Virus record (IMG/VR): IMGVR_UViG_2690316227_000016 | Direction: 5' to 3' (one strand) | Length of the DNA: 8,280 bases | Origin: a virus | Lineage: Duplodnaviria > Heunggongvirae > Uroviricota > Caudoviricetes | Part shown: one piece after another, positions 1 to 8,280 of the stretch | Position numbering within the stretch: position 1 is the stretch's first letter | How the letters are laid out: every line of letters starts with the position of its first letter | Notes under the pieces: model-generated | What the model saw: only the letters and a program-made list of their open reading frames with translations | Database searches by the model: none | Told to the model about the DNA's origin: nothing | Program-made: the position numbers and the translations under genes

Positions 1-1242
1 ATGGCGAGAAAAACACACCCATTAACCACAGTGCAGATCAAAGCAGCCAGACCAGCGCAAAAGGAGTACACCCTGCAGGACGGCGGAGGGCTTTTTCTCC
101 TGGTCAAACCGTCTGGATCAAAACTCTGGAGATTTTCCTACTACCGACCATCGGACAAAAAAAGAATATTGCTGAGTTTTGGATCGCTTGAAGATGTTTC
201 CCTGGCTGATGCCAGAAAACGCCGTAGCGAGTACAGGACGTTAATCAGTGCCGGAACTGACCCGCAGGACCACGAGAGGCAAAAAAGAGAGACAGAGGCC
301 CGAAGACAAGGGAACACGTTCGAAAATGTGGCGGCGGCATGGTACCAGGTGAAAATCAGCCAGAATCTGGCCCCCAACACGATTAAAGACATCTGGCGTT
401 CGCTGGATAAATATGTATTCCCGTTCATCGGCAACACGCCAATAGATACCCTCACCGCCCGAAGGTTCGTTGAAGTGCTTACCCCCATCAAGGAGCGCGG
501 CAACCTGGAAACACTCAAGCGGGTTTTACAGCGCGTTAATGAGGTAATGGATTACGCCGCCAACAGTGGGCTGATTGATGCCAATCCGGCTATGAATGTG
601 CGTAAGGCGTTTCCCTCACCTGTAAAAAAACATATGCCAACAATCCGCCCCGAACAGCTGCCGGAGCTTATGCAGGCTTTATCAGTATCGGCAACAGAAC
701 GGCAGACCAGATTACTGATTGAATGGCAGTTACTGACCGTAACCCGTCCCGCCGAAGCGTCATCAACGCGGTGGGATGAAATCAACCTGGACGCGAAGCA
801 ATGGACGATACCTGCCGGACGCATGAAGATGCGCAGGGATCACGTTATCCCGCTTTCCGGTCAGGCTATGGCGGTGCTGGAGGCCATGAAACCAATCAGC
901 CACCACCGCAATTACGTTTTCCCAAGTCTGAAAGACCCACAGCAGCCGATGAACAGCCAGACAGCTAACGCAGCATTGCGGCGTATGGGATTCGCTGGCG
1001 TGCTGGTGTCTCATGGATTACGCGCCATATTCAGCACAGCAGCGAACGAGGAAGGATTCGAGCCGGACGTAATAGAGGCGGCACTTGCCCACGTCGACAC
1101 CAACGAAGTTAGACGGGCATACAACCGGAGCAACTACATAGAAAAACGCATCGTGCTGATGCGCTGGTGGGGCGAATTTGTCGAGGCTGCGGCGACGGGC
1201 GTAACCCTCGCCAGTGGTAAAAGGGGTATCCGAGCCGTGTAG
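1..1242 (+). CDS. int: Tyrosine recombinase / integrase, P4-family (prophage CP4-57-like)
   Basis: 413-aa ORF filling the frame. C-terminal catalytic-type motifs are visible: TRPAEA (Arg), HGLRAIF (His-x-x-Arg), LAHV (second His), RRAYNRSNY (Tyr region). The N-terminal part resembles the arm-binding domain of P4-like integrases. Family assignment is from motif recollection, not a search. Confidence 0.9.
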   Translation: MARKTHPLTTVQIKAARPAQKEYTLQDGGGLFLLVKPSGSKLWRFSYYRPSDKKRILLSFGSLEDVSLADARKRRSEYRTLISAGTDPQDHERQKRETEARRQGNTFENVAAAWYQVKISQNLAPNTIKDIWRSLDKYVFPFIGNTPIDTLTARRFVEVLTPIKERGNLETLKRVLQRVNEVMDYAANSGLIDANPAMNVRKAFPSPVKKHMPTIRPEQLPELMQALSVSATERQTRLLIEWQLLTVTRPAEASSTRWDEINLDAKQWTIPAGRMKMRRDHVIPLSGQAMAVLEAMKPISHHRNYVFPSLKDPQQPMNSQTANAALRRMGFAGVLVSHGLRAIFSTAANEEGFEPDVIEAALAHVDTNEVRRAYNRSNYIEKRIVLMRWWGEFVEAAATGVTLASGKRGIRAV

Positions 1243-1738: not shown

Positions 1739-1945
1739 ATGGAAGCAATCAGAAAAATTATCTTTCGCCAGGAAGTAAAAAAAATTATCCACATCAAGGC
1801 AGACAGCACGCTGCAAAGCATGATCAACGCCGGAGAATTTCCGCAGGGTTTTCGCGTTGGTTTACGCCGTCGCGGATGGTATGAGGATGATGTGTTGGCC
1901 TGGCAGAAAGAACGCGAACAGGAAGCACGCGGAACGGCTGCTTAA
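1739..1945 (+). CDS. alpA: AlpA-family phage transcriptional regulator (small HTH/MerR-like)
   Basis: 68-aa protein with the characteristic AlpA-family C-terminal region (EFPQGFRVGLRRRGWYEDDVLAWQKERE). Position immediately after int is typical for P4-like elements and PICIs. Confidence 0.8.
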   Translation: MEAIRKIIFRQEVKKIIHIKADSTLQSMINAGEFPQGFRVGLRRRGWYEDDVLAWQKEREQEARGTAA

Positions 1946-2650: not shown

Positions 2651-2848
2651 ATGGTTGCCGTAAATCATATACCACACCTTGTACACACACAAACGGCCTT
2701 TGTGTGGCGTTTTCTGGCCCTGAGTGCCGGAGAATCTCAAATCATCCACGTAACCGCCTGGACGGAACGCGAAGCGCGTAGCCGTTGCCCGTCCGGTTGT
2801 GTTGCTGTATTCGCCGCCCGTATTCGTCAGGGGTCACATCATGCGTAA
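2651..2848 (+). CDS. Icd-like small protein, copy 1 (host cell division inhibitor Icd-like family, tentative)
   Basis: 65 aa with an AGGAG 6 nt upstream of ATG 2651. Shares the motifs FVWRF...T...TEREAR...FxARIRQG with the ORF at 3135. The family name is from recollection of P4-like prophage annotations, not a search. Confidence 0.5.
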   Translation: MVAVNHIPHLVHTQTAFVWRFLALSAGESQIIHVTAWTEREARSRCPSGCVAVFAARIRQGSHHA

Positions 2849-2868
2849 AAACCGCTTGCAAAAAATTA

Positions 2869-3105
2869 TAACGGGGCTGTATGCTTCCCCCGTCGCCCAC
2901 ATGGCGACCGGGTTTAGCAGCCTGAATACTGTAGCGGACAGCCGCTTATATTCCGATATGCGGTTTTTTTGTGTCCGTAAGCCTACCCATACCCGCATTA
3001 TGGCGGGGCGTAACGGGGGAGCCTTTGCGCTCGCTGGTTCCTACAGTGCCAGTCTGCTAACCCTGTTACGTCTCGCCACCCCGTTTAGCAGCGTAGTAGC
3101 GAGAC
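2869..3105 (+). repeat. Duplicated non-coding module between the Icd-like genes
   Basis: TAACGGGG at 2869-2876 and 3011-3018. GTTTAGCAGC at 2912-2921 and 3083-3092, followed by GTAGCGGACAG and GTAGCGAGAC respectively. A near-complementary CTGCTAA-CCC element sits at 3054-3063. Small hairpins at 2871-2893, 2892-2908 and 2992-3007. Confidence 0.4.
2934..2970 (+). terminator. Intrinsic terminator-like hairpin plus T7
   Basis: GCGG-aca-GCCGC (2934-2945) and a CCGC...GCGG stem (2942-2963) followed by T7 (2964-2970). It lies inside the apparent N-terminal extension of ORF 2799..3299, which argues that the extension is non-coding. Confidence 0.5.
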
Positions 3106-3134
3106 TCCTTAAAATTACTGTAGGAGCCTTTCAC

Positions 3135-3299
3135 ATGGCTGTATCCGCACGCCCTTACTTTGTCTGGCGCTTTATGCAGTGCCACCACAGCTGCATTGAT
3201 GTATTCACCGTTACCGCTGCCACTGAGCGCGAAGCACGCGCCCAGCTGCCGCACGCACATCTGATTTTTGTCGCCCGTATTCGTCAGGGGGTTTTGTGA
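3135..3299 (+). CDS. Icd-like small protein, copy 2 (paralog of 2651..2848)
   Basis: 54 aa. The TAGGAGCC ribosome-binding context 8 nt upstream of ATG 3135 mirrors that of copy 1. Conserved motifs YFVWRF, TEREARAQLP, FVARIRQG. Its TGA stop overlaps the next start (TGATG at 3297-3301). Confidence 0.5.
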   Translation: MAVSARPYFVWRFMQCHHSCIDVFTVTAATEREARAQLPHAHLIFVARIRQGVL

Positions 3300-3531: not shown

Positions 3532-3831
3532 ATGAAACTTAAATATCCTGGCTTAACTGCCAGCGGCAAAACTCGCACTAAATTCATGTGCGGGGATATT
3601 TACCGCGATAAGTACGGCGGAACGGTAATGATTAAGGGCGTGGAGGAACGGCGCGTAACTTACCGCCGTGAAGGCTACGAATATGATTGCGTTATGCCTG
3701 TTTATCAGTTCGACCGTGATTTTTATCTGGTACAGGCAGCGCCCCGCAGTAAGCCAACCAGCAGGGAGAAAGCACGCGCCAATATTCAGGAAATAAGAAA
3801 GATGTTGAACGTATTCAGGGGTAAAAAATGA
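3532..3831 (+). CDS. Hypothetical protein (99 aa)
   Basis: Begins MKLKYPG. Its stop overlaps the start of the replication ATPase (ATGA at 3828-3831). Protein-like composition; possibly a prophage DUF family, unverified. Confidence 0.5.
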   Translation: MKLKYPGLTASGKTRTKFMCGDIYRDKYGGTVMIKGVEERRVTYRREGYEYDCVMPVYQFDRDFYLVQAAPRSKPTSREKARANIQEIRKMLNVFRGKK

Positions 3832-5237
3832 AACTTGCACCGAACGTAAAACAATTACCGAAAGACAAATACACCGAAGCAATTATTTTCGCGGGGAATG
3901 ATGCGCACTCATTTGCAGAGCACTACATCATTGCACAGGCCAAAAAAGCAGGCGATCCAGTCCCCCCCGTTTATCTGGGGTGTTATCAGTTAAGCGAACT
4001 GGATAACCTCCAGATTGTTGATGATGGGCGATACAGGGCGACGGTGATACGCGCCGGAAATATTGAAGAGCCGCAGCTGTTAACCATCGCCACGAAACTG
4101 GCGATCGCCGGAGTCCAGGAGGCGCGGCTAATTTCTGAAAATTTCGAATTGCTGGAGGAATGGAACGACCAGCTTCCACGGCTTAGGGAGGCATGGGAAC
4201 GCGGGGAAAGCCTGGTCATGAAAAAAATCCCCCAGCGAAAAACCACGCTACCGATGAGCGTTGGATCTACCGGATACGACACGCAGCTTGATTACGTGGT
4301 AAAGGGGATTATTCCGGCATCGTCGCTTTGCAGCATATACGGGGCGAGCGGTTCCTATAAATCATTCCTTGCCGGATCGTGGGCGTGTCACGTTTCCACG
4401 GGCCGCCAGTGGGGAGGCCGCAGGGTGGCGCATGGCGCTGTTCTCTATGTGGTTGGTGAAGGCGGTATTGGCGTTCCGCGTCGTGTAAAAGCCTGGGAGG
4501 TTGTGCACGGGGAGCAGGTGAAAAATCTTTACCTTGTAAACCGTCCCATCTTTCCGGCTGTCCCGCTTGATGTTGATGAACTGGTTATTGCTGCCAGCCA
4601 GGTTGAGCGGGAAACGGGTAAACCGGTTCTAATGATTATTCTGGACACGCTGGCGCGTTGCTTTGGCGGCAATGACGAAAATGACTCCCGTGACATGGGG
4701 GCGTTTATCCGTGGATGTGACGAACTGAAACGACGCACAGGGGCCACGGTGCTGGTGGTTCACCATTCCGGCAAGGATGAAACAAAGGGCGCGCGTGGTT
4801 CCAGTGCATTCCGTGCATCGCTGGACGCTGAATACAGGATACGCAGAGAGGACGCAGGAAGCGAAGCGCTGGTCATCTCATGCACCAAAATGAAGGACGC
4901 GGAGGAACTCAAAGAGGCTGCCTATGATTTGCGGGTTGTGGAGCTTTTTACCGACGCTGACGGCGAATTAATTACGTCGCTGGTGGTGGTGGATGAGCCG
5001 CGCCCACCCGTTGAACTGGAGCGCATCGAGGAGGCAGGCAACAAGACGGAAAACCATACCGCGCTATGGGGGTGCATCCGTTCACGCACACAGAACGGCG
5101 ACAAGTGCACGATCCCGCTGTTGCGTGATGACATGAAGAAGATGGGATACGAAATGAAGCACTTCCGGCGCTGGCTGGGCAAGCTGGAAAAAGACGGCGT
5201 TATCTATGTTGACGGCGATGATGTAGGGCCACTGTAA
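3828..5237 (+). CDS. Replication ATPase/helicase, RecA-like (AAA_25/RepA-type); probable satellite replication initiator
   Basis: 469 aa with a P-loop-like GASGSYKS, a Walker B-like PVLMIILD, and the VLVVHHSGKDETKGARGSSAFRASLD block typical of RepA-like NTPases. The C-terminal roughly 100 aa could be a DNA-binding domain. An iteron array follows directly. Confidence 0.85.
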   Translation: MKLAPNVKQLPKDKYTEAIIFAGNDAHSFAEHYIIAQAKKAGDPVPPVYLGCYQLSELDNLQIVDDGRYRATVIRAGNIEEPQLLTIATKLAIAGVQEARLISENFELLEEWNDQLPRLREAWERGESLVMKKIPQRKTTLPMSVGSTGYDTQLDYVVKGIIPASSLCSIYGASGSYKSFLAGSWACHVSTGRQWGGRRVAHGAVLYVVGEGGIGVPRRVKAWEVVHGEQVKNLYLVNRPIFPAVPLDVDELVIAASQVERETGKPVLMIILDTLARCFGGNDENDSRDMGAFIRGCDELKRRTGATVLVVHHSGKDETKGARGSSAFRASLDAEYRIRREDAGSEALVISCTKMKDAEELKEAAYDLRVVELFTDADGELITSLVVVDEPRPPVELERIEEAGNKTENHTALWGCIRSRTQNGDKCTIPLLRDDMKKMGYEMKHFRRWLGKLEKDGVIYVDGDDVGPL

Positions 5238-5448: not shown

Positions 5449-5691
5449 ATGCGCAGAGACAGAACACAGCAAAAATATAAAGCGTTAGACATGACAGAGC
5501 ACGCTTTAAAGGTGGCAATCAAAGTTATAGACCGCCACACGCGGGAAGGATACGCGAATGAACATCCCGAACTGATAAGCGCATTCATGACCACAGCGGC
5601 GGCAAACTTTGCCACGCTGACAGAACGGGAGATTGCCGAAGCGGAACAGGTAACAACCATCAACGTTAAAACCGGAGAGGTGGAATCATGA
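5449..5691 (+). CDS. Hypothetical small protein (80 aa from ATG 5449; track ORF extends to 5254 across the iterons)
   Basis: The stop overlaps the ssb start (ATGA at 5688-5691). The upstream extension is encoded by the iteron repeats and is probably not translated. No family recognised. Confidence 0.4.
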   Translation: MRRDRTQQKYKALDMTEHALKVAIKVIDRHTREGYANEHPELISAFMTTAAANFATLTEREIAEAEQVTTINVKTGEVES

Positions 5692-6098
5692 CAGCACAGA
5701 TAGCAGCTTACGGGCGGCTGGTGGACGACCCGCAGGTAAAACAGACCAGCAAGGGCACACCGATGACGCTGGCGCGTATGGCGGTATCACTGCCATGCAG
5801 TCAGGCACAGGACGGACAGGCGACGTTATGGTTATCGGTCATCGCATTTGGCAAACAGGCCGACCAACTGGCAGGACATGAGAAAGGCAACGTAATCAGC
5901 TTATCCGGCGTGATGCAGGTCAGTCAGTGGACCGGACAGAACGGGGAGACGCGTCAGGGTTATCAGGTCATTGCCGACAGCGTAATCAGTGCGAAAACGG
6001 TGCGACCAGGCGGGAACAGACGCAAGACCACAGGCACACAGGGTAATCAGCCACCAGCGGGAGGCGATGATCCTTACGGTGATGATATTCCGTTCTGA
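5688..6098 (+). CDS. ssb: Single-stranded DNA-binding protein (SSB family)
   Basis: 136 aa with an OB-fold-like N-terminal region (GRL..DP, W at about position 48, FGK, KG), a Gly/Pro/Gln-rich linker and the characteristic acidic C-terminal tail DDIPF. Confidence 0.8.
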   Translation: MTAQIAAYGRLVDDPQVKQTSKGTPMTLARMAVSLPCSQAQDGQATLWLSVIAFGKQADQLAGHEKGNVISLSGVMQVSQWTGQNGETRQGYQVIADSVISAKTVRPGGNRRKTTGTQGNQPPAGGDDPYGDDIPF

Positions 6099-6107
6099 AC
6101 GCACAGG

Positions 6108-6130
6108 CCGGAGCAATCCGGCTTTTTTTC
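6108..6130 (+). terminator. Rho-independent terminator after ssb
   Basis: GCCGGA-gcaa-TCCGGC hairpin (6108-6123) followed by T7 (6124-6130). Confidence 0.7.
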
Positions 6131-6217
6131 AAACTCTCATATCTTCAAAAATGGTTAATTAATGATAATCTATCGAAAATACTGATTATGCGATGATAAG
6201 TATCAGGAGGAAACAAA

Positions 6218-6412
6218 GTGGAAGAGATAAAGCAAAGCGCTACCGTGATGATTGATCATGAAATCCTTAACGAGCTTAAAAAGTTGCAGTTCGATATTGT
6301 TCGCCGGATGAATGAATCGGGCATCTACGGCAGAGCCGCCACGCCAACAATAGGTCATCTTGCACGTGTGCTGTTACGCGAAAGACTGGGCATTGCAACA
6401 GGTGAGGCATAA
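6218..6412 (+). CDS. Hypothetical small protein (64 aa, GTG start)
   Basis: Strong AGGAGG at 6205-6210, 7 nt before GTG 6218. Could be a small DNA-binding protein, but this is unverified. Confidence 0.45.
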   Translation: MEEIKQSATVMIDHEILNELKKLQFDIVRRMNESGIYGRAATPTIGHLARVLLRERLGIATGEA

Positions 6413-6415
6413 CAA

Positions 6416-6577
6416 ATGGCTATCACAGAACGCGAGGCAAGCATCATTAAGGCCATTGGCGAGGAAACAAGAGACACAATAGCGCCATTGATGGAAAAGA
6501 TCGCAGAGCTTGAGACACGAATAAACAAGCTGAGTAATGAAGTTGAAGGCCTGATCTCGTTACTCGGTGAGCAATGA
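6416..6577 (+). CDS. Hypothetical small helical protein (53 aa; not in the ORF track)
   Basis: Translated by hand from ATG 6416 to TGA 6575-6577 as MAITEREASIIKAIGEETRDTIAPLMEKIAELETRINKLSNEVEGLISLLGEQ. It starts 4 nt after the previous stop and has coiled-coil-like composition. Confidence 0.3.
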   Translation: MAITEREASIIKAIGEETRDTIAPLMEKIAELETRINKLSNEVEGLISLLGEQ

Positions 6578-6580
6578 CAT

Positions 6581-6630
6581 GGGGGGGTATCATCCGGCGA
6601 AAAAAACGATCGCCACGGACACCGCCCCCC
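6581..6630. repeat. Imperfect inverted repeat capped by G7 and C6 runs
   Basis: GGGGGGG (6581-6587) and CCCCCC (6625-6630) with partly complementary arms (CCGGCG and CGCC) around an A7 centre. No T-run follows. Confidence 0.25.
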
Positions 6631-6660
6631 GTCTCATTCGTAGAAAATTTTGCTTTTCAA

Positions 6661-6684
6661 AAAAGTTACACGAAAAGTTACACC
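6661..6684 (+). repeat. Tandem 12-bp repeats AAAAGTTACACG / AAAAGTTACACC in the terS leader
   Basis: Two adjacent 12-mers read directly. The exact 12-mer AAAAGTTACACC recurs at 6927-6938 inside terS. Confidence 0.55.
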
Positions 6685-6705
6685 CCCTCAAAACGAGGTT
6701 TTTGC

Positions 6706-7194
6706 ATGGCATTAACGACCAAAAAAAAGCGGTTTGCTGATGCGTTATCAAGGGGCGCAAATCCCACGGAAGCCGCTATACATGCGGGATACAGCGAAAA
6801 GACCGCAAGGGTTAAAGGCTGGCAGCTATCCAACGATCCTGAGGTGAAAAAGTATCTTAAGGCTGTAACTTCTGATGTAACTTTTCAGGTTACAAAACCG
6901 AAAAAAGTTACAAAGAAAGTTACCGAAAAAGTTACACCGGAACGGGCATCAATTAACACCATTGAGATGATGGATAACGGCCTACCCGACCCCATCAAAG
7001 CAATGGGCAGGATACTGATTGACAACATGGACACAGATCCAAAACTGGCTTTAGATGCCGCGTTTAAGCTGGCCCAGTTCACCCACCGCAAGATCGGCAG
7101 CATTGGGAAAAAAGAGGTTAAAAAACTCAATGCCGCTAGTGTCTACTCAAATCGGTTCCCCATCCCTAAGCTACCAACAGACTTAAAACACTGA
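6706..7194 (+). CDS. terS: Terminase small subunit (Terminase_2 / SaPI-TerS-like family)
   Basis: The N-terminus KKKRFADALSRGANPTEAAIHAGYSEKTA matches the conserved HTH of Terminase_2 small terminases (KRFA...AAI.AGYS.KTA). GAGG lies 8 nt upstream of ATG 6706. The track ORF from 6574 is an untranslated in-frame extension. Confidence 0.7.
   Translation: MALTTKKKRFADALSRGANPTEAAIHAGYSEKTARVKGWQLSNDPEVKKYLKAVTSDVTFQVTKPKKVTKKVTEKVTPERASINTIEMMDNGLPDPIKAMGRILIDNMDTDPKLALDAAFKLAQFTHRKIGSIGKKEVKKLNAASVYSNRFPIPKLPTDLKH
6864..6938. repeat. Phased GT(A/T)AC array inside terS (12-bp period, both orientations)
   Basis: GTAAC at 6865 and 6877, GTTAC at 6889, 6907, 6919 and 6931, with spacings of 12, 12, 18, 12 and 12 bp. 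Encodes the VT-x-x repeat in KPKKVTKKVTEKVTPE. Confidence 0.5.
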
Positions 7195-7205
7195 GGTAGC
7201 GAACT

Positions 7206-7367
7206 ATGAGCGAATACATCACAGACCCTATTGATGTACTCACGGAAATCATGAACGACAAGCAGCAGTCGACCGAAATACGGTTACAGGCCGCCGCTGT
7301 TCTGATGCCATATTTTCACGAAACACTAAACCCGTGCTTCCAGGAGGAGGAAGAAGATGATTTCTAA
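7206..7367 (+). CDS. Hypothetical small protein with acidic tail (53 aa; not in the ORF track)
   Basis: Translated by hand as MSEYITDPIDVLTEIMNDKQQSTEIRLQAAAVLMPYFHETLNPCFQEEEEDDF. GAGG lies 9 nt upstream, and the ORF overlaps the next gene's start by 11 nt. Confidence 0.3.
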   Translation: MSEYITDPIDVLTEIMNDKQQSTEIRLQAAAVLMPYFHETLNPCFQEEEEDDF

Positions 7368-8280
7368 AAACATGAAAGGCGTGTCGGCAGTTCGCGCCGC
7401 CAGCGTGCTTACATCGTGTAAATTCAGCCATGCAGACGCTATAGAGATGACGAAAAGAAATGATCCGGCAGTATCGAAATTTCTTGAAAAATCCATTGTT
7501 GCCGGAATGACTACGGATAATATGCCGTCGCTGGTGGCAGAGCCGATAGTAAGAGAGCTTGGTGAGTATATTTTTTCGCAGTCTGTACCAGGCAAGCTAA
7601 TCAGCAGCGGGCTGAATCTTCCGTTTGGCGCAAAATTGCAGTCAATATCAGGCAAGGGTAGTAAATGGCTTAAAGAAGCCGAAGAAATCCCTGTCAAAGA
7701 GGGAGAAGTAAACGAAAGCGCGCTAAAACTGTGCAAACTTGGCGCTATTGTGATGCTGAATAACGAGCTAATCAAATTTAGCACCCCTGGCACCAATTCA
7801 GCGATCAGAGACTTGATCACATCGGAATCGGTGAAAGAAATAGATAAAAAATTTCTTTCCAGTGACAAGGAGGTGGCTGGCGTATCCCCTGAGGGCGTGC
7901 TTAATGGTGCTGATGAGGCCGAAAACTTCATAGAGCTTTTCAAAAAGCACATAGCGAACGGTAACACGCTTTCCACGTCGTCGCTAATCTTGCCCGTAGA
8001 AAACGCCTTACAGCTTACTGATGCTGAGTTCTGGCAGATAGAGCTTTTGAGAATACCGGTAATTGTGAGCGAACAGGCGGATCGCATGATGCTGATAGAC
8101 GCTCAAAAGCTGATTATTAACGTTGAAGCCACGGTTATAACCCCAACTGATGAGGCGGTAATAAAAACCGAATCAGGGGCGGTTAGCCTTTTCCAGAATG
8201 ACGCTACAGCGTTCAGGGCAATCACCTATTGCGGATGGCAAAAACTCGATAAGGCCGTCACCGTTCTGGCGAAAAGCTGA
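7357..8280 (+). CDS. Probable HK97-fold major capsid protein
   Basis: 307 aa with GGAGGAGG 6 nt upstream of ATG 7357. The C-terminal region LLRIPVIVSEQ...LIDAQ...FQNDATAFRAITYCGWQKLDKAVTVL follows the usual HK97-type capsid C-terminal pattern. The stop falls at the window end. Confidence 0.55.
   Translation: MISKNMKGVSAVRAASVLTSCKFSHADAIEMTKRNDPAVSKFLEKSIVAGMTTDNMPSLVAEPIVRELGEYIFSQSVPGKLISSGLNLPFGAKLQSISGKGSKWLKEAEEIPVKEGEVNESALKLCKLGAIVMLNNELIKFSTPGTNSAIRDLITSESVKEIDKKFLSSDKEVAGVSPEGVLNGADEAENFIELFKKHIANGNTLSTSSLILPVENALQLTDAEFWQIELLRIPVIVSEQADRMMLIDAQKLIINVEATVITPTDEAVIKTESGAVSLFQNDATAFRAITYCGWQKLDKAVTVLAKS

Follow-up and report, generated by a model that had tools for sequence, protein, structure and literature searches.

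Candidate TerS-binding repeats beside a helper-type cos core in a PICI-like island

The DNA analyzed here is a stretch of 8,280 nucleotides, hereafter the window, from a Caudoviricetes virus record (IMG/VR IMGVR_UViG_2690316227_000016). Our subject is its packaging region, in which a gene for a small terminase subunit (terS) is preceded by a conserved cos core and is associated with short repeats that lie both in the untranslated leader and inside the coding sequence (Table 1). The window contains the integrase, AAA_25 replicase, SSB, TerS and capsid-homologue genes of a phage-inducible chromosomal island (PICI), with a weak match only for AlpA, and by gene content it is a PICI-like satellite. 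A 53-aa open reading frame (ORF) occupies the place where phages have an HNH gene, and terL is not found within the window. A chromosomal island that matches the 1-kb packaging region at 95-98% identity is present in 220 of 5426 complete Escherichia coli genomes, O157:H7, O111 and O26 strains among them. The O157:H7 counterpart (98%-identical packaging region) is located between cspD and clpS; the capsid homologue is its last gene, and it lacks terL, HNH, lysis and tail genes.

Table 1. Features of the window, with positions counted from its first nucleotide (a slash marks the predicted cut)
Feature	Position	Strand	Remarks
Tyrosine integrase	1-1242	+	
AlpA-like regulator, weak match	1739-1945	+	E 0.0035, below Pfam cut-off
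DUF4222	3532-3831	+	
AAA_25 replication protein	3828-5237	+	
SSB	5688-6098	+	
53-aa ORF ending just before cos core	6416-6577	+	
Conserved cos core: G-run, ~30-bp spacer, GGACACCGCCCCCCGT/CTCATTCGTAGAAAATTTTGC	6581-6660	+	between small island ORF and terS
Predicted 10-nt 3' cohesive end CGCCCCCCGT	6623-6632	+	homology to fLi-Aba02/fEg-Aba01 end
Proximal repeat 1, AAAAGTTACACG	6661-6672	+	noncoding; +29 to +40 from predicted left end
Proximal repeat 2, AAAAGTTACACC	6673-6684	+	noncoding; identical to 6927-6938
terS, 162 aa: N-terminal helix-turn-helix (HTH), disordered linker with Val-Thr (VT) repeats, C-terminal helical core	6706-7194	+	
Distal inverted repeat, minus strand AGAAGTTACAGC	6862-6873	-	encodes Val54-Thr55 as GTA ACT
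Distal inverted repeat, minus strand AAAAGTTACATC	6874-6885	-	encodes Val58-Thr59 as GTA ACT
Weaker distal copy, TCAGGTTACAAA	6885-6896	+	encodes Val62-Thr63
Three tandem 12-bp distal repeats, AAAAGTTACAAA, GAAAGTTACCGA, AAAAGTTACACC	6903-6938	+	encode KVT x3
53-aa ORF directly after terS	7206-7367	+	
HK97-fold major-capsid homologue	7357-8280 (window end)	+	PF05065; TIGR01554 just above cut-off

Within terS, GTAAC cores (AGTTAC on the minus strand) are found at 6865 and 6877 and GTTAC cores at 6889, 6907, 6919 and 6931, giving in-gene spacings of 12, 12, 18, 12 and 12 bp. An initial annotation, made from the letters of this DNA, had reported the 12-mer copies and the GT(A/T)AC cores, and all of its coordinates were correct on re-reading the sequence. 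It had also described the array as 12-bp-phased; steps of 12 bp are indeed frequent, but the phasing is not strict, given the 18-bp in-gene step here and spacings across loci of 9-21 bp in genes and 10-13 bp in noncoding DNA. The heptamer AAGTTAC occurs eight times in the window, compared with a mean of 0.76 in 200 dinucleotide-preserving shuffles, of which the largest count was 4 and none reached 8, and seven of the eight matches lie within 6663-6935. The sole match outside the packaging region (3655-3661, minus strand, inside the DUF4222 gene) is probably due to chance. The 8-mer AAGTTACA occurs six times, four on the plus and two on the minus strand, all in this region. Furthermore, Tandem Repeats Finder and a repeat finder recovered both arrays and the inverted relation of the leader to the first two in-gene copies.

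From 42 copies in seven lineages, taken in both orientations with their flanks, we derived the asymmetric 12-nt consensus AAAAGTTACACC, which is the same for coding and noncoding copies and in both orientations. As copies were collected by their GTTAC core, invariance of the core is true by construction and it is the flanks that carry the informative conservation; here, A is near-invariant at -4, -2, -1 and +5. Each repeat unit contains an A4 tract.

The initial annotation had argued that the repeat is selected as DNA and is not only a by-product of the VT peptide repeat, and had suggested a comparison of synonymous positions in homologues. We made this comparison in eleven terS genes from seven lineages (E. 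coli window type, E. coli L015 type, Hafnia, Salmonella and three metagenomic; L numbers denote loci in our comparison set), whose TerS proteins share 52-87% amino-acid identity. The linker Val-Thr codons read GT[AT]-AC in 45 of 45 cases, compared with GTT or GTA at 22 of 41 other Val codons. At the first two aligned VT positions, which are inverted, the codons are GTA-ACT, and at later positions they are GTT-ACA or GTT-ACC, with the exception of the fourth VT of L015-type genes (GTA-ACA). In all lineages the Lys before each direct copy is AAA and the Val there is GTT. Identity at fourfold third positions was 85% in motif codons (117/138) and 37% elsewhere (253/681), a comparison that is descriptive and carries no P value because the pair counts are non-independent. 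None of the eleven genes keeps the VT repeat by other codons. Together with the noncoding copies at a fixed place, these codon data uphold the earlier argument: the motif is conserved as DNA independently of coding, as expected of a cosB-like element.

Variation within the linker follows the DNA motif. GTA-ACT at the first aligned position is kept in five of the seven lineages, and is TTA-ACC (Leu-Thr) in L015 and GTC-AAT (Val-Asn) in L017. In the L015 lineage both inverted in-gene copies are gone (now Leu-Thr and Ala-Thr), and the long leader contains an inverted copy in their place. The weaker copy at 6885-6896 is present only in window-type and L015-type lineages, and the close relatives L023 and L024 have one or two direct tandem units compared with three in the window, so that VT counts are 6 in the window, 5 in L024 and 4 in L023; VT repeats are retained in TerS homologues down to 51% identity. 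In L039 the linker starts GCA GTT AAC CCT, with GTTAAC read as Val-Asn, and the linker of Acinetobacter phage fLi-Aba02 contains AAA GTT AAA (Val-Lys), ATG TTA AAG and, inverted, TCT TTA ACA. As GTTAAC and GTTAAA sites yield Val-Asn and Val-Lys, we conclude that the DNA motif dictates the peptide, and that this is a clean example of a DNA-binding-site array dictating an amino-acid repeat in a protein.

Upstream of the repeats, the cos core (6581-6660) shares ~89% identity with the sequence that separates the HNH "DNase" gene from terS in many Stx1, Stx2 (Shiga toxin) and other lambdoid phages. Every TerS relative that we examined has the same blocks, namely a G-run, a ~30-bp spacer, GGACACCGCCCCCC(G/C/A)T, and CTCAC or CTCAT followed by AGAAAAAAT, and the same blocks are found at the joined ends of fLi-Aba02. 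This phage has HK97-type 10-nt 3' cohesive ends, CGCCCCCCAT, established by PhageTerm and a heat/slow-cool gel (PMC7354433). Its record ends in ...GGACACCGCCCCCCAT and starts with CGCACGCACAAAAAAAATTCCC, and the annotation gives its final 10 nt as the 3' cohesive end. Window positions 6617-6640, GGACACCGCCCCCCGT/CTCATTCG, align with GGACACCGCCCCCCAT/CGCACGCA of fLi-Aba02. By this homology we predict that the cohesive end of the window is at 6623-6632 and that the packaged left end starts at 6633. Because the core is homologous to a mapped cohesive end, we read the site as cos-type and not pac-type. The initial annotation had proposed a candidate packaging site and had drawn on pac sites within or next to terS; a packaging-recognition role remains the best reading of the array, but with a separate cos core upstream it would belong to a cos-type and not a pac-type site. 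We placed the cut using only fLi-Aba02, which has published end mapping. The starts of other phage records were rejected as a guide; that of Lys8385Vzw lies exactly at the anchor CTCAC, that of vB_PR2a elsewhere and that of Bcep176 10 nt before the anchor. An HNH-terS-terL arrangement flanks the cos region in phage relatives, and L015-type islands have an HNH gene.

The spacer at 6588-6616, from the G-run to GGACACC, is the Stx-phage version ATCATCCGGCGAAAAAAACGATCGCC in the window, and all other close island relatives (L002, L003, L010, L012, L023) have AGTGTTCCGGCCGGAAAGTCGATC instead. All close island relatives keep an island-type right side, although the left spacer comes as phage-type or island-type. 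The window spacer has the look of a short segment swapped with the cos site of a helper, the repeat side being still island-type.

To relate the repeats to the core, we counted offsets with the C of the anchor CTCAC taken as +1. Of 13 measured loci, 12 have their first motif core at +31 to +36, whether the motif is GTTAC, GTTAAC, GTTAAA or GTTAA: +31 to +35 in GTTAC islands and phages, +34 in the Stx phage (GTTAAC), +34 in fLi-Aba02 (GTTAAA) and +36 in Bcep176 (GTTAA). A manual count in one more locus, L039 (GTTAAC), gave ~+35. The exception is Pseudomonas phage IME307, which has three GTTAAC sites at +23, +36 and +49. The terS start codon itself varies from +37 to +230. In short-leader genomes (ATG at ~+67 to +74) a second cluster follows within terS; it starts at +223 to +237 in seven short-leader GTTAC loci with inverted in-gene copies and at +250 in L027, and its last copy lies between +257 and +299. 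In the long-leader loci L015 and L028 (ATG at +228) there are six noncoding copies, including a palindromic pair AAAAGTTACACGATGTAACTTTT. The Stx phage, whose ATG is at +230, has its five GTTAAC sites (CAGTTAACAT type, both orientations) in the leader and none in terS. As the window leader is only ~70 bp, its second cluster falls inside terS. A cosB-like array is expected to have repeated elements of both orientations to the terS side of the cut, as seen here.

The window TerS matches PF03592 (Terminase_2) over residues 3-57 and phrog_641 over its full length. An AlphaFold2 model places helices at residues 5-56 (predicted local distance difference test score, pLDDT, 81-89) in a four-helix domain, gives residues 57-84 a pLDDT below 50, and has further helices at 96-146. 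The low confidence of the modeled linker fits the idea that some other constraint sets its sequence. TerS is the only recognizable DNA-binding packaging protein in the island, and an island-encoded binder is the simplest explanation because the island motif differs from that of co-resident phages sharing its cos core; we therefore infer that TerS binds the repeats. In its C-terminal half the island TerS is close to the Stx-phage TerS, a likeness that is consistent with docking on a helper TerL. The sites themselves differ, AAAAGTTACAC in the island and CAGTTAACAT in the Stx phage, and this sequence comparison suggests that the island may owe a packaging specificity of its own to GTTAC in place of GTTAAC. 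Among the aligned proteins, residue 39, in predicted helix 31-42, is W, C or Y in 6 of 6 GTTAC genes and S or A in 5 of 5 GTTAA-type genes, and residue 20 is P or S in GTTAC genes and K, Q or N in GTTAA-type genes.

From these data, which are comparative sequence evidence throughout, we propose with a probability of roughly 0.7 that the locus is a two-part cos site, in which the repeats form a cosB-like TerS-binding array beside a helper-type cleavage core in a PICI-like island. The cleavage core, nearly the same as in co-resident HNH-bearing lambdoid and Stx prophages, would presumably be cut by the TerL and HNH proteins of the helper to leave the predicted 10-nt 3' cohesive end. The array would provide sites for the HTH domains of the island's own TerS, two of them ~30 bp inside the left end (6661-6684) and, after a further ~190 bp, six more (6862-6938), of which two are inverted and four direct. 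The distal cluster sits in the linker between the HTH and the oligomerization core, which may tolerate the peptide that the motif imposes (Val-Thr, Val-Asn or Val-Lys). An oligomeric TerS could then engage several phased sites at once and mark the island concatemer for the cutting and translocating enzymes of the helper.

Several observations weigh against this proposal. The cut position relies on homology to fLi-Aba02, whose TerS is only 31% identical. The spacing inside arrays is not constant, ranging from 8 to 68 bp. The covariation at residues 39 and 20 is confounded by phylogeny, as the GTTAC lineages form one clade. Moreover, the HTH domains of the island and Stx-phage TerS proteins are very similar (KTARVKG.QL is common to both), and a 1-bp difference between their sites may therefore give no real discrimination. 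The closest solved TerS structures by sequence match weakly (E 0.001-0.06), and simultaneous binding by multiple HTH domains, or wrapping, by TerS is unproven and disputed (review, PMC9611059).

We considered whether the repeats could be a packaging element read by something other than TerS, either another binder (helper HNH, TerL, or host IHF or Fis) or a DNA-shape effect in which phased A-tracts bend the cos DNA. The A4 tract in each unit and the ~12-bp phasing are compatible with this, the A-tract of HK97 acts through DNA shape (PMC11331095), and a fixed offset from the cos core suits any cos-associated factor. However, the island has no HNH or TerL of its own and yet has a motif unlike that of its likely helpers, which favors a binder encoded by the island itself. 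A shape element, moreover, would not need an invariant GTTAC core that covaries with HTH residue 39, and no IHF-like consensus was noticed. We regard this explanation as unlikely, though it is the strongest of the rivals. A pac site within terS for headful packaging is clearly less probable: P22, SPP1 and SaPIs (Staphylococcus aureus pathogenicity islands) have pac in or beside terS, and PF03592 includes the pac phages SPP1 and SF6, but here a conserved core homologous to mapped 10-nt 3' cohesive ends lies directly upstream, where a pac site would have no cos cleavage core, and the phage relatives show the HNH-cos-terS-terL layout of HK97-type cos phages.

An RNA-level role, in which the inverted in-gene copies of the transcript base-pair with leader and direct copies and so adjust terS translation or mRNA stability, is about as improbable as a pac site. 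There are inverted repeats of 21-25 nt with 79-84% complementarity (6661-6685 with 6861-6885, and inside 6864-6942), and the minimum-free-energy fold pairs inverted with direct copies, but the advantage of this fold over shuffles is marginal (z = -1.78; 3 of 100 were equally good) and no Rfam family match was found at the site. The phage arrays, in long noncoding leaders, have mixed orientation without a constant pairing partner, and the offset is tied to the DNA cleavage core and not to the start codon. Least probable, by a small step, is a peptide repeat produced by replication slippage, with leader copies that are coincidental or hitch-hiking duplicates and an array without DNA-level function. 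The three direct in-gene units are tandem at 12 bp and their number varies among near-identical islands (6, 5 and 4 VT), as slippage would predict; but slippage cannot produce the inverted copies, and the codons are fixed across lineages that are near saturation at other synonymous sites (85% versus 37%). Noncoding copies stand at a fixed offset in nearly all lineages, the peptide becomes VN or VK where the DNA motif changes, and the Stx-phage TerS has no VT repeat while its array is wholly noncoding. The codon and offset data already largely refute slippage. An operator role gained no support, as a promoter scan found no sigma-70-like site in 6100-7400, and a replication-origin reading was set aside as unlikely because the same array lies between HNH and terL of a complete Hafnia prophage.

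Within the favored two-part cos site, a more specific mechanism is possible, although we consider it doubtful. The array might act as a ruler for a ring-shaped TerS, one oligomer of which would read ~12-bp-phased AAAAGTTACAC sites in two clusters ~190 bp apart with several flexibly tethered HTH domains and so loop or wrap the left end. Specificity over co-resident helpers would come from a 1-bp change (GTTAC versus GTTAAC) matched by residue 39 (Trp/Cys/Tyr versus Ser/Ala), without an interference protein. If so, distal sites within the TerS linker would mean that protein and site are both inherited and exchanged as one inseparable cassette.

The distribution of the array bears on the origin of this module and on the supply of helpers. 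In Hafnia alvei, this TerS type and this array belong to a complete lambdoid prophage, which has Q, a lysis cassette, HNH, terS, terL, protease-capsid, portal, connectors, tail tube and tape measure genes, so the module is phage-derived and not satellite-specific in origin. Of 5426 E. coli genomes, 1198 contain the cos core, often more than once, and the island-bearing strains 2009C_3612 and FORC_028 have it at four and six places; helpers with the same core and a GTTAAC array would therefore be commonly available. The suggestion that the repeats are a satellite-specific recognition site accordingly survives in a narrower form: the Hafnia prophage shares the array, but in E. coli it differs from the GTTAAC array of the likely helpers. 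A TerS scan of one genome per species found no relatives. When viral contigs were scanned from a profile seed, 80 loci came back; nearly all have just the HTH domain in common and lack both a cos core and an enriched motif, L039 excepted.

Among the relatives, L015 (3348-3836) and L028 are E. coli islands of a sister type with a 60%-identical TerS. L015 has its own HNH upstream of cos and a capsid homologue after terS, and its ~230-bp leader contains one GTTAAC site in addition to the six noncoding GTTAC sites. L028 has the leader and sites of L015, and neither HNH nor a capsid gene was seen there. One copy of this island type, L027, adjoins PerC, HigB/HigA and a type I restriction-modification system.

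The genes that flank the packaging region have some features of their own. The product of ORF 6416-6577 has a coiled-coil look by eye only, and in Salmonella and one metagenomic island (L019, L021) the upstream sequences look, again by eye, like similar ORFs with the same ...L(I/V)SLLGE ending. ORF 7206-7367 encodes an acidic tail and matches the terS profile phrog_641 at positions 89-125 (E 3.5e-7), and BLASTP found no similarity between it and the window TerS; it may be a mimic of the TerS core or an accessory protein. ORFs of 49-53 aa, matched by size and position alone, lie at the same place in islands L020, L021, L024 and L026, and in the phage-like contig L025 a similar-sized ORF lies between terS and terL. 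The capsid homologue, which is the last island gene in relatives, recalls by analogy Ccm, the capsid-size redirector of the cos-type SaPIbov5.

Elsewhere in the window, a C4 antisense RNA lies at 2996-3083 on the plus strand (Rfam RF01695, 71.5 bits compared with a gathering score of 45). ORF 2552-2848 stops upstream of this RNA and ORF 2799-3299 spans it, and each has an Icd-like cell-division-inhibitor domain at its end (NF033153, E 1e-17 and 8e-14, respectively). The RNA and the two ORFs are a duplicated P1/P7-style c4-icd module within a PICI-like island. Between int and alpA, at 1633-1672, there are two 20-bp tandem units, each a dyad (AAAAACGGTGGAAACCGTTT), which may be an operator.

The proposed site has precedents. 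In lambda, cosB (R3, R2 and R1, bound by gpNu1) likewise lies toward terS from the nick, and its repeated sites face both ways. The satellite EcCICFT073 keeps the cosQ and cosN of its helper and has its own cosB (PMC6739421), and so likewise combines a helper-like cleavage core with a different terS-side array. Repeated TerS sites beside cosN, and a satellite with a helper-like cosN and its own cosB, are therefore already known in principle. The families, however, are unrelated, as lambda uses Nu1 and has 12-nt 5' ends, whereas the island has a PF03592 TerS and HNH-dependent 10-nt 3' ends. In further contrast to EcCICFT073 and lambda, the island brings a complete TerS and not an Rpp adaptor, its array is partly inside terS, and no IHF site was identified. 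The cos site of HK97 is likewise HNH-assisted, with a 10-nt 3' overhang and a TerS site tens of bp inside the left end by an A-tract; the site of HK97 TerS spans +15 to +29 from the cut, and binding requires the adjacent A-tract (PMC11331095). There, a non-HTH substructure of the nonamer recognizes one 15-bp site and DNA is threaded through the channel (PMC11331095), whereas the island has eight short repeats, grouped in two clusters, and a TerS with a classical HTH domain at its N-terminus.

Phage fLi-Aba02 has a homologous cos core (GGACACCGCCCCCCAT/CGCACGC...AAAAAATTCCC), a TerS of the same family (31% identity) and motif copies at +34, +47 and +58, with more in the terS linker. It and fEg-Aba01 differ from the island in having GTTAAA in place of GTTAC and in being complete phages. 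A term search of the fLi-Aba02 end-mapping paper (PMC7354433) returned nothing on repeats. P22 (gene 3), SPP1 (pacL/pacR) and SaPI pac sites likewise overlap or adjoin terS, and SaPIs likewise redirect packaging with their own TerS, but these are headful systems without a cos core or HNH gene, and the P22 site is a single 22-bp sequence. Islands of the SaPIbov5 type likewise exploit HNH-dependent cos phages and encode an HK97-fold capsid homologue (Ccm) by the packaging signal (PMC5052747, PMC8569155); the window island adds its own TerS and a diverged site array. In the searchable literature, which is incomplete so that a prior description is possible, we found no account of the GTTAC/GTTAAC/GTTAAA motif family and series, of a fixed offset of repeats from an HK97-type cut, or of an array embedded in the TerS linker with a resulting peptide repeat.

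How TerS recognizes viral DNA is disputed, with wrapping, threading and lateral interdigitation all proposed (PMC9611059). Few systems offer a clear multi-site TerS target, and in this family the motif is short, invariant, countable and a set distance away from a mapped cos cut. The natural variants GTTAC, GTTAAC and GTTAAA, with the accompanying HTH changes, make recognition, stoichiometry and specificity switching directly testable. The suggested strategy of the island is to keep the cutting site of its helper and to bring its own TerS and TerS sites. This suggests how widespread islands of E. coli, Shigella and Salmonella could be preferentially packaged by common Stx-type prophages.

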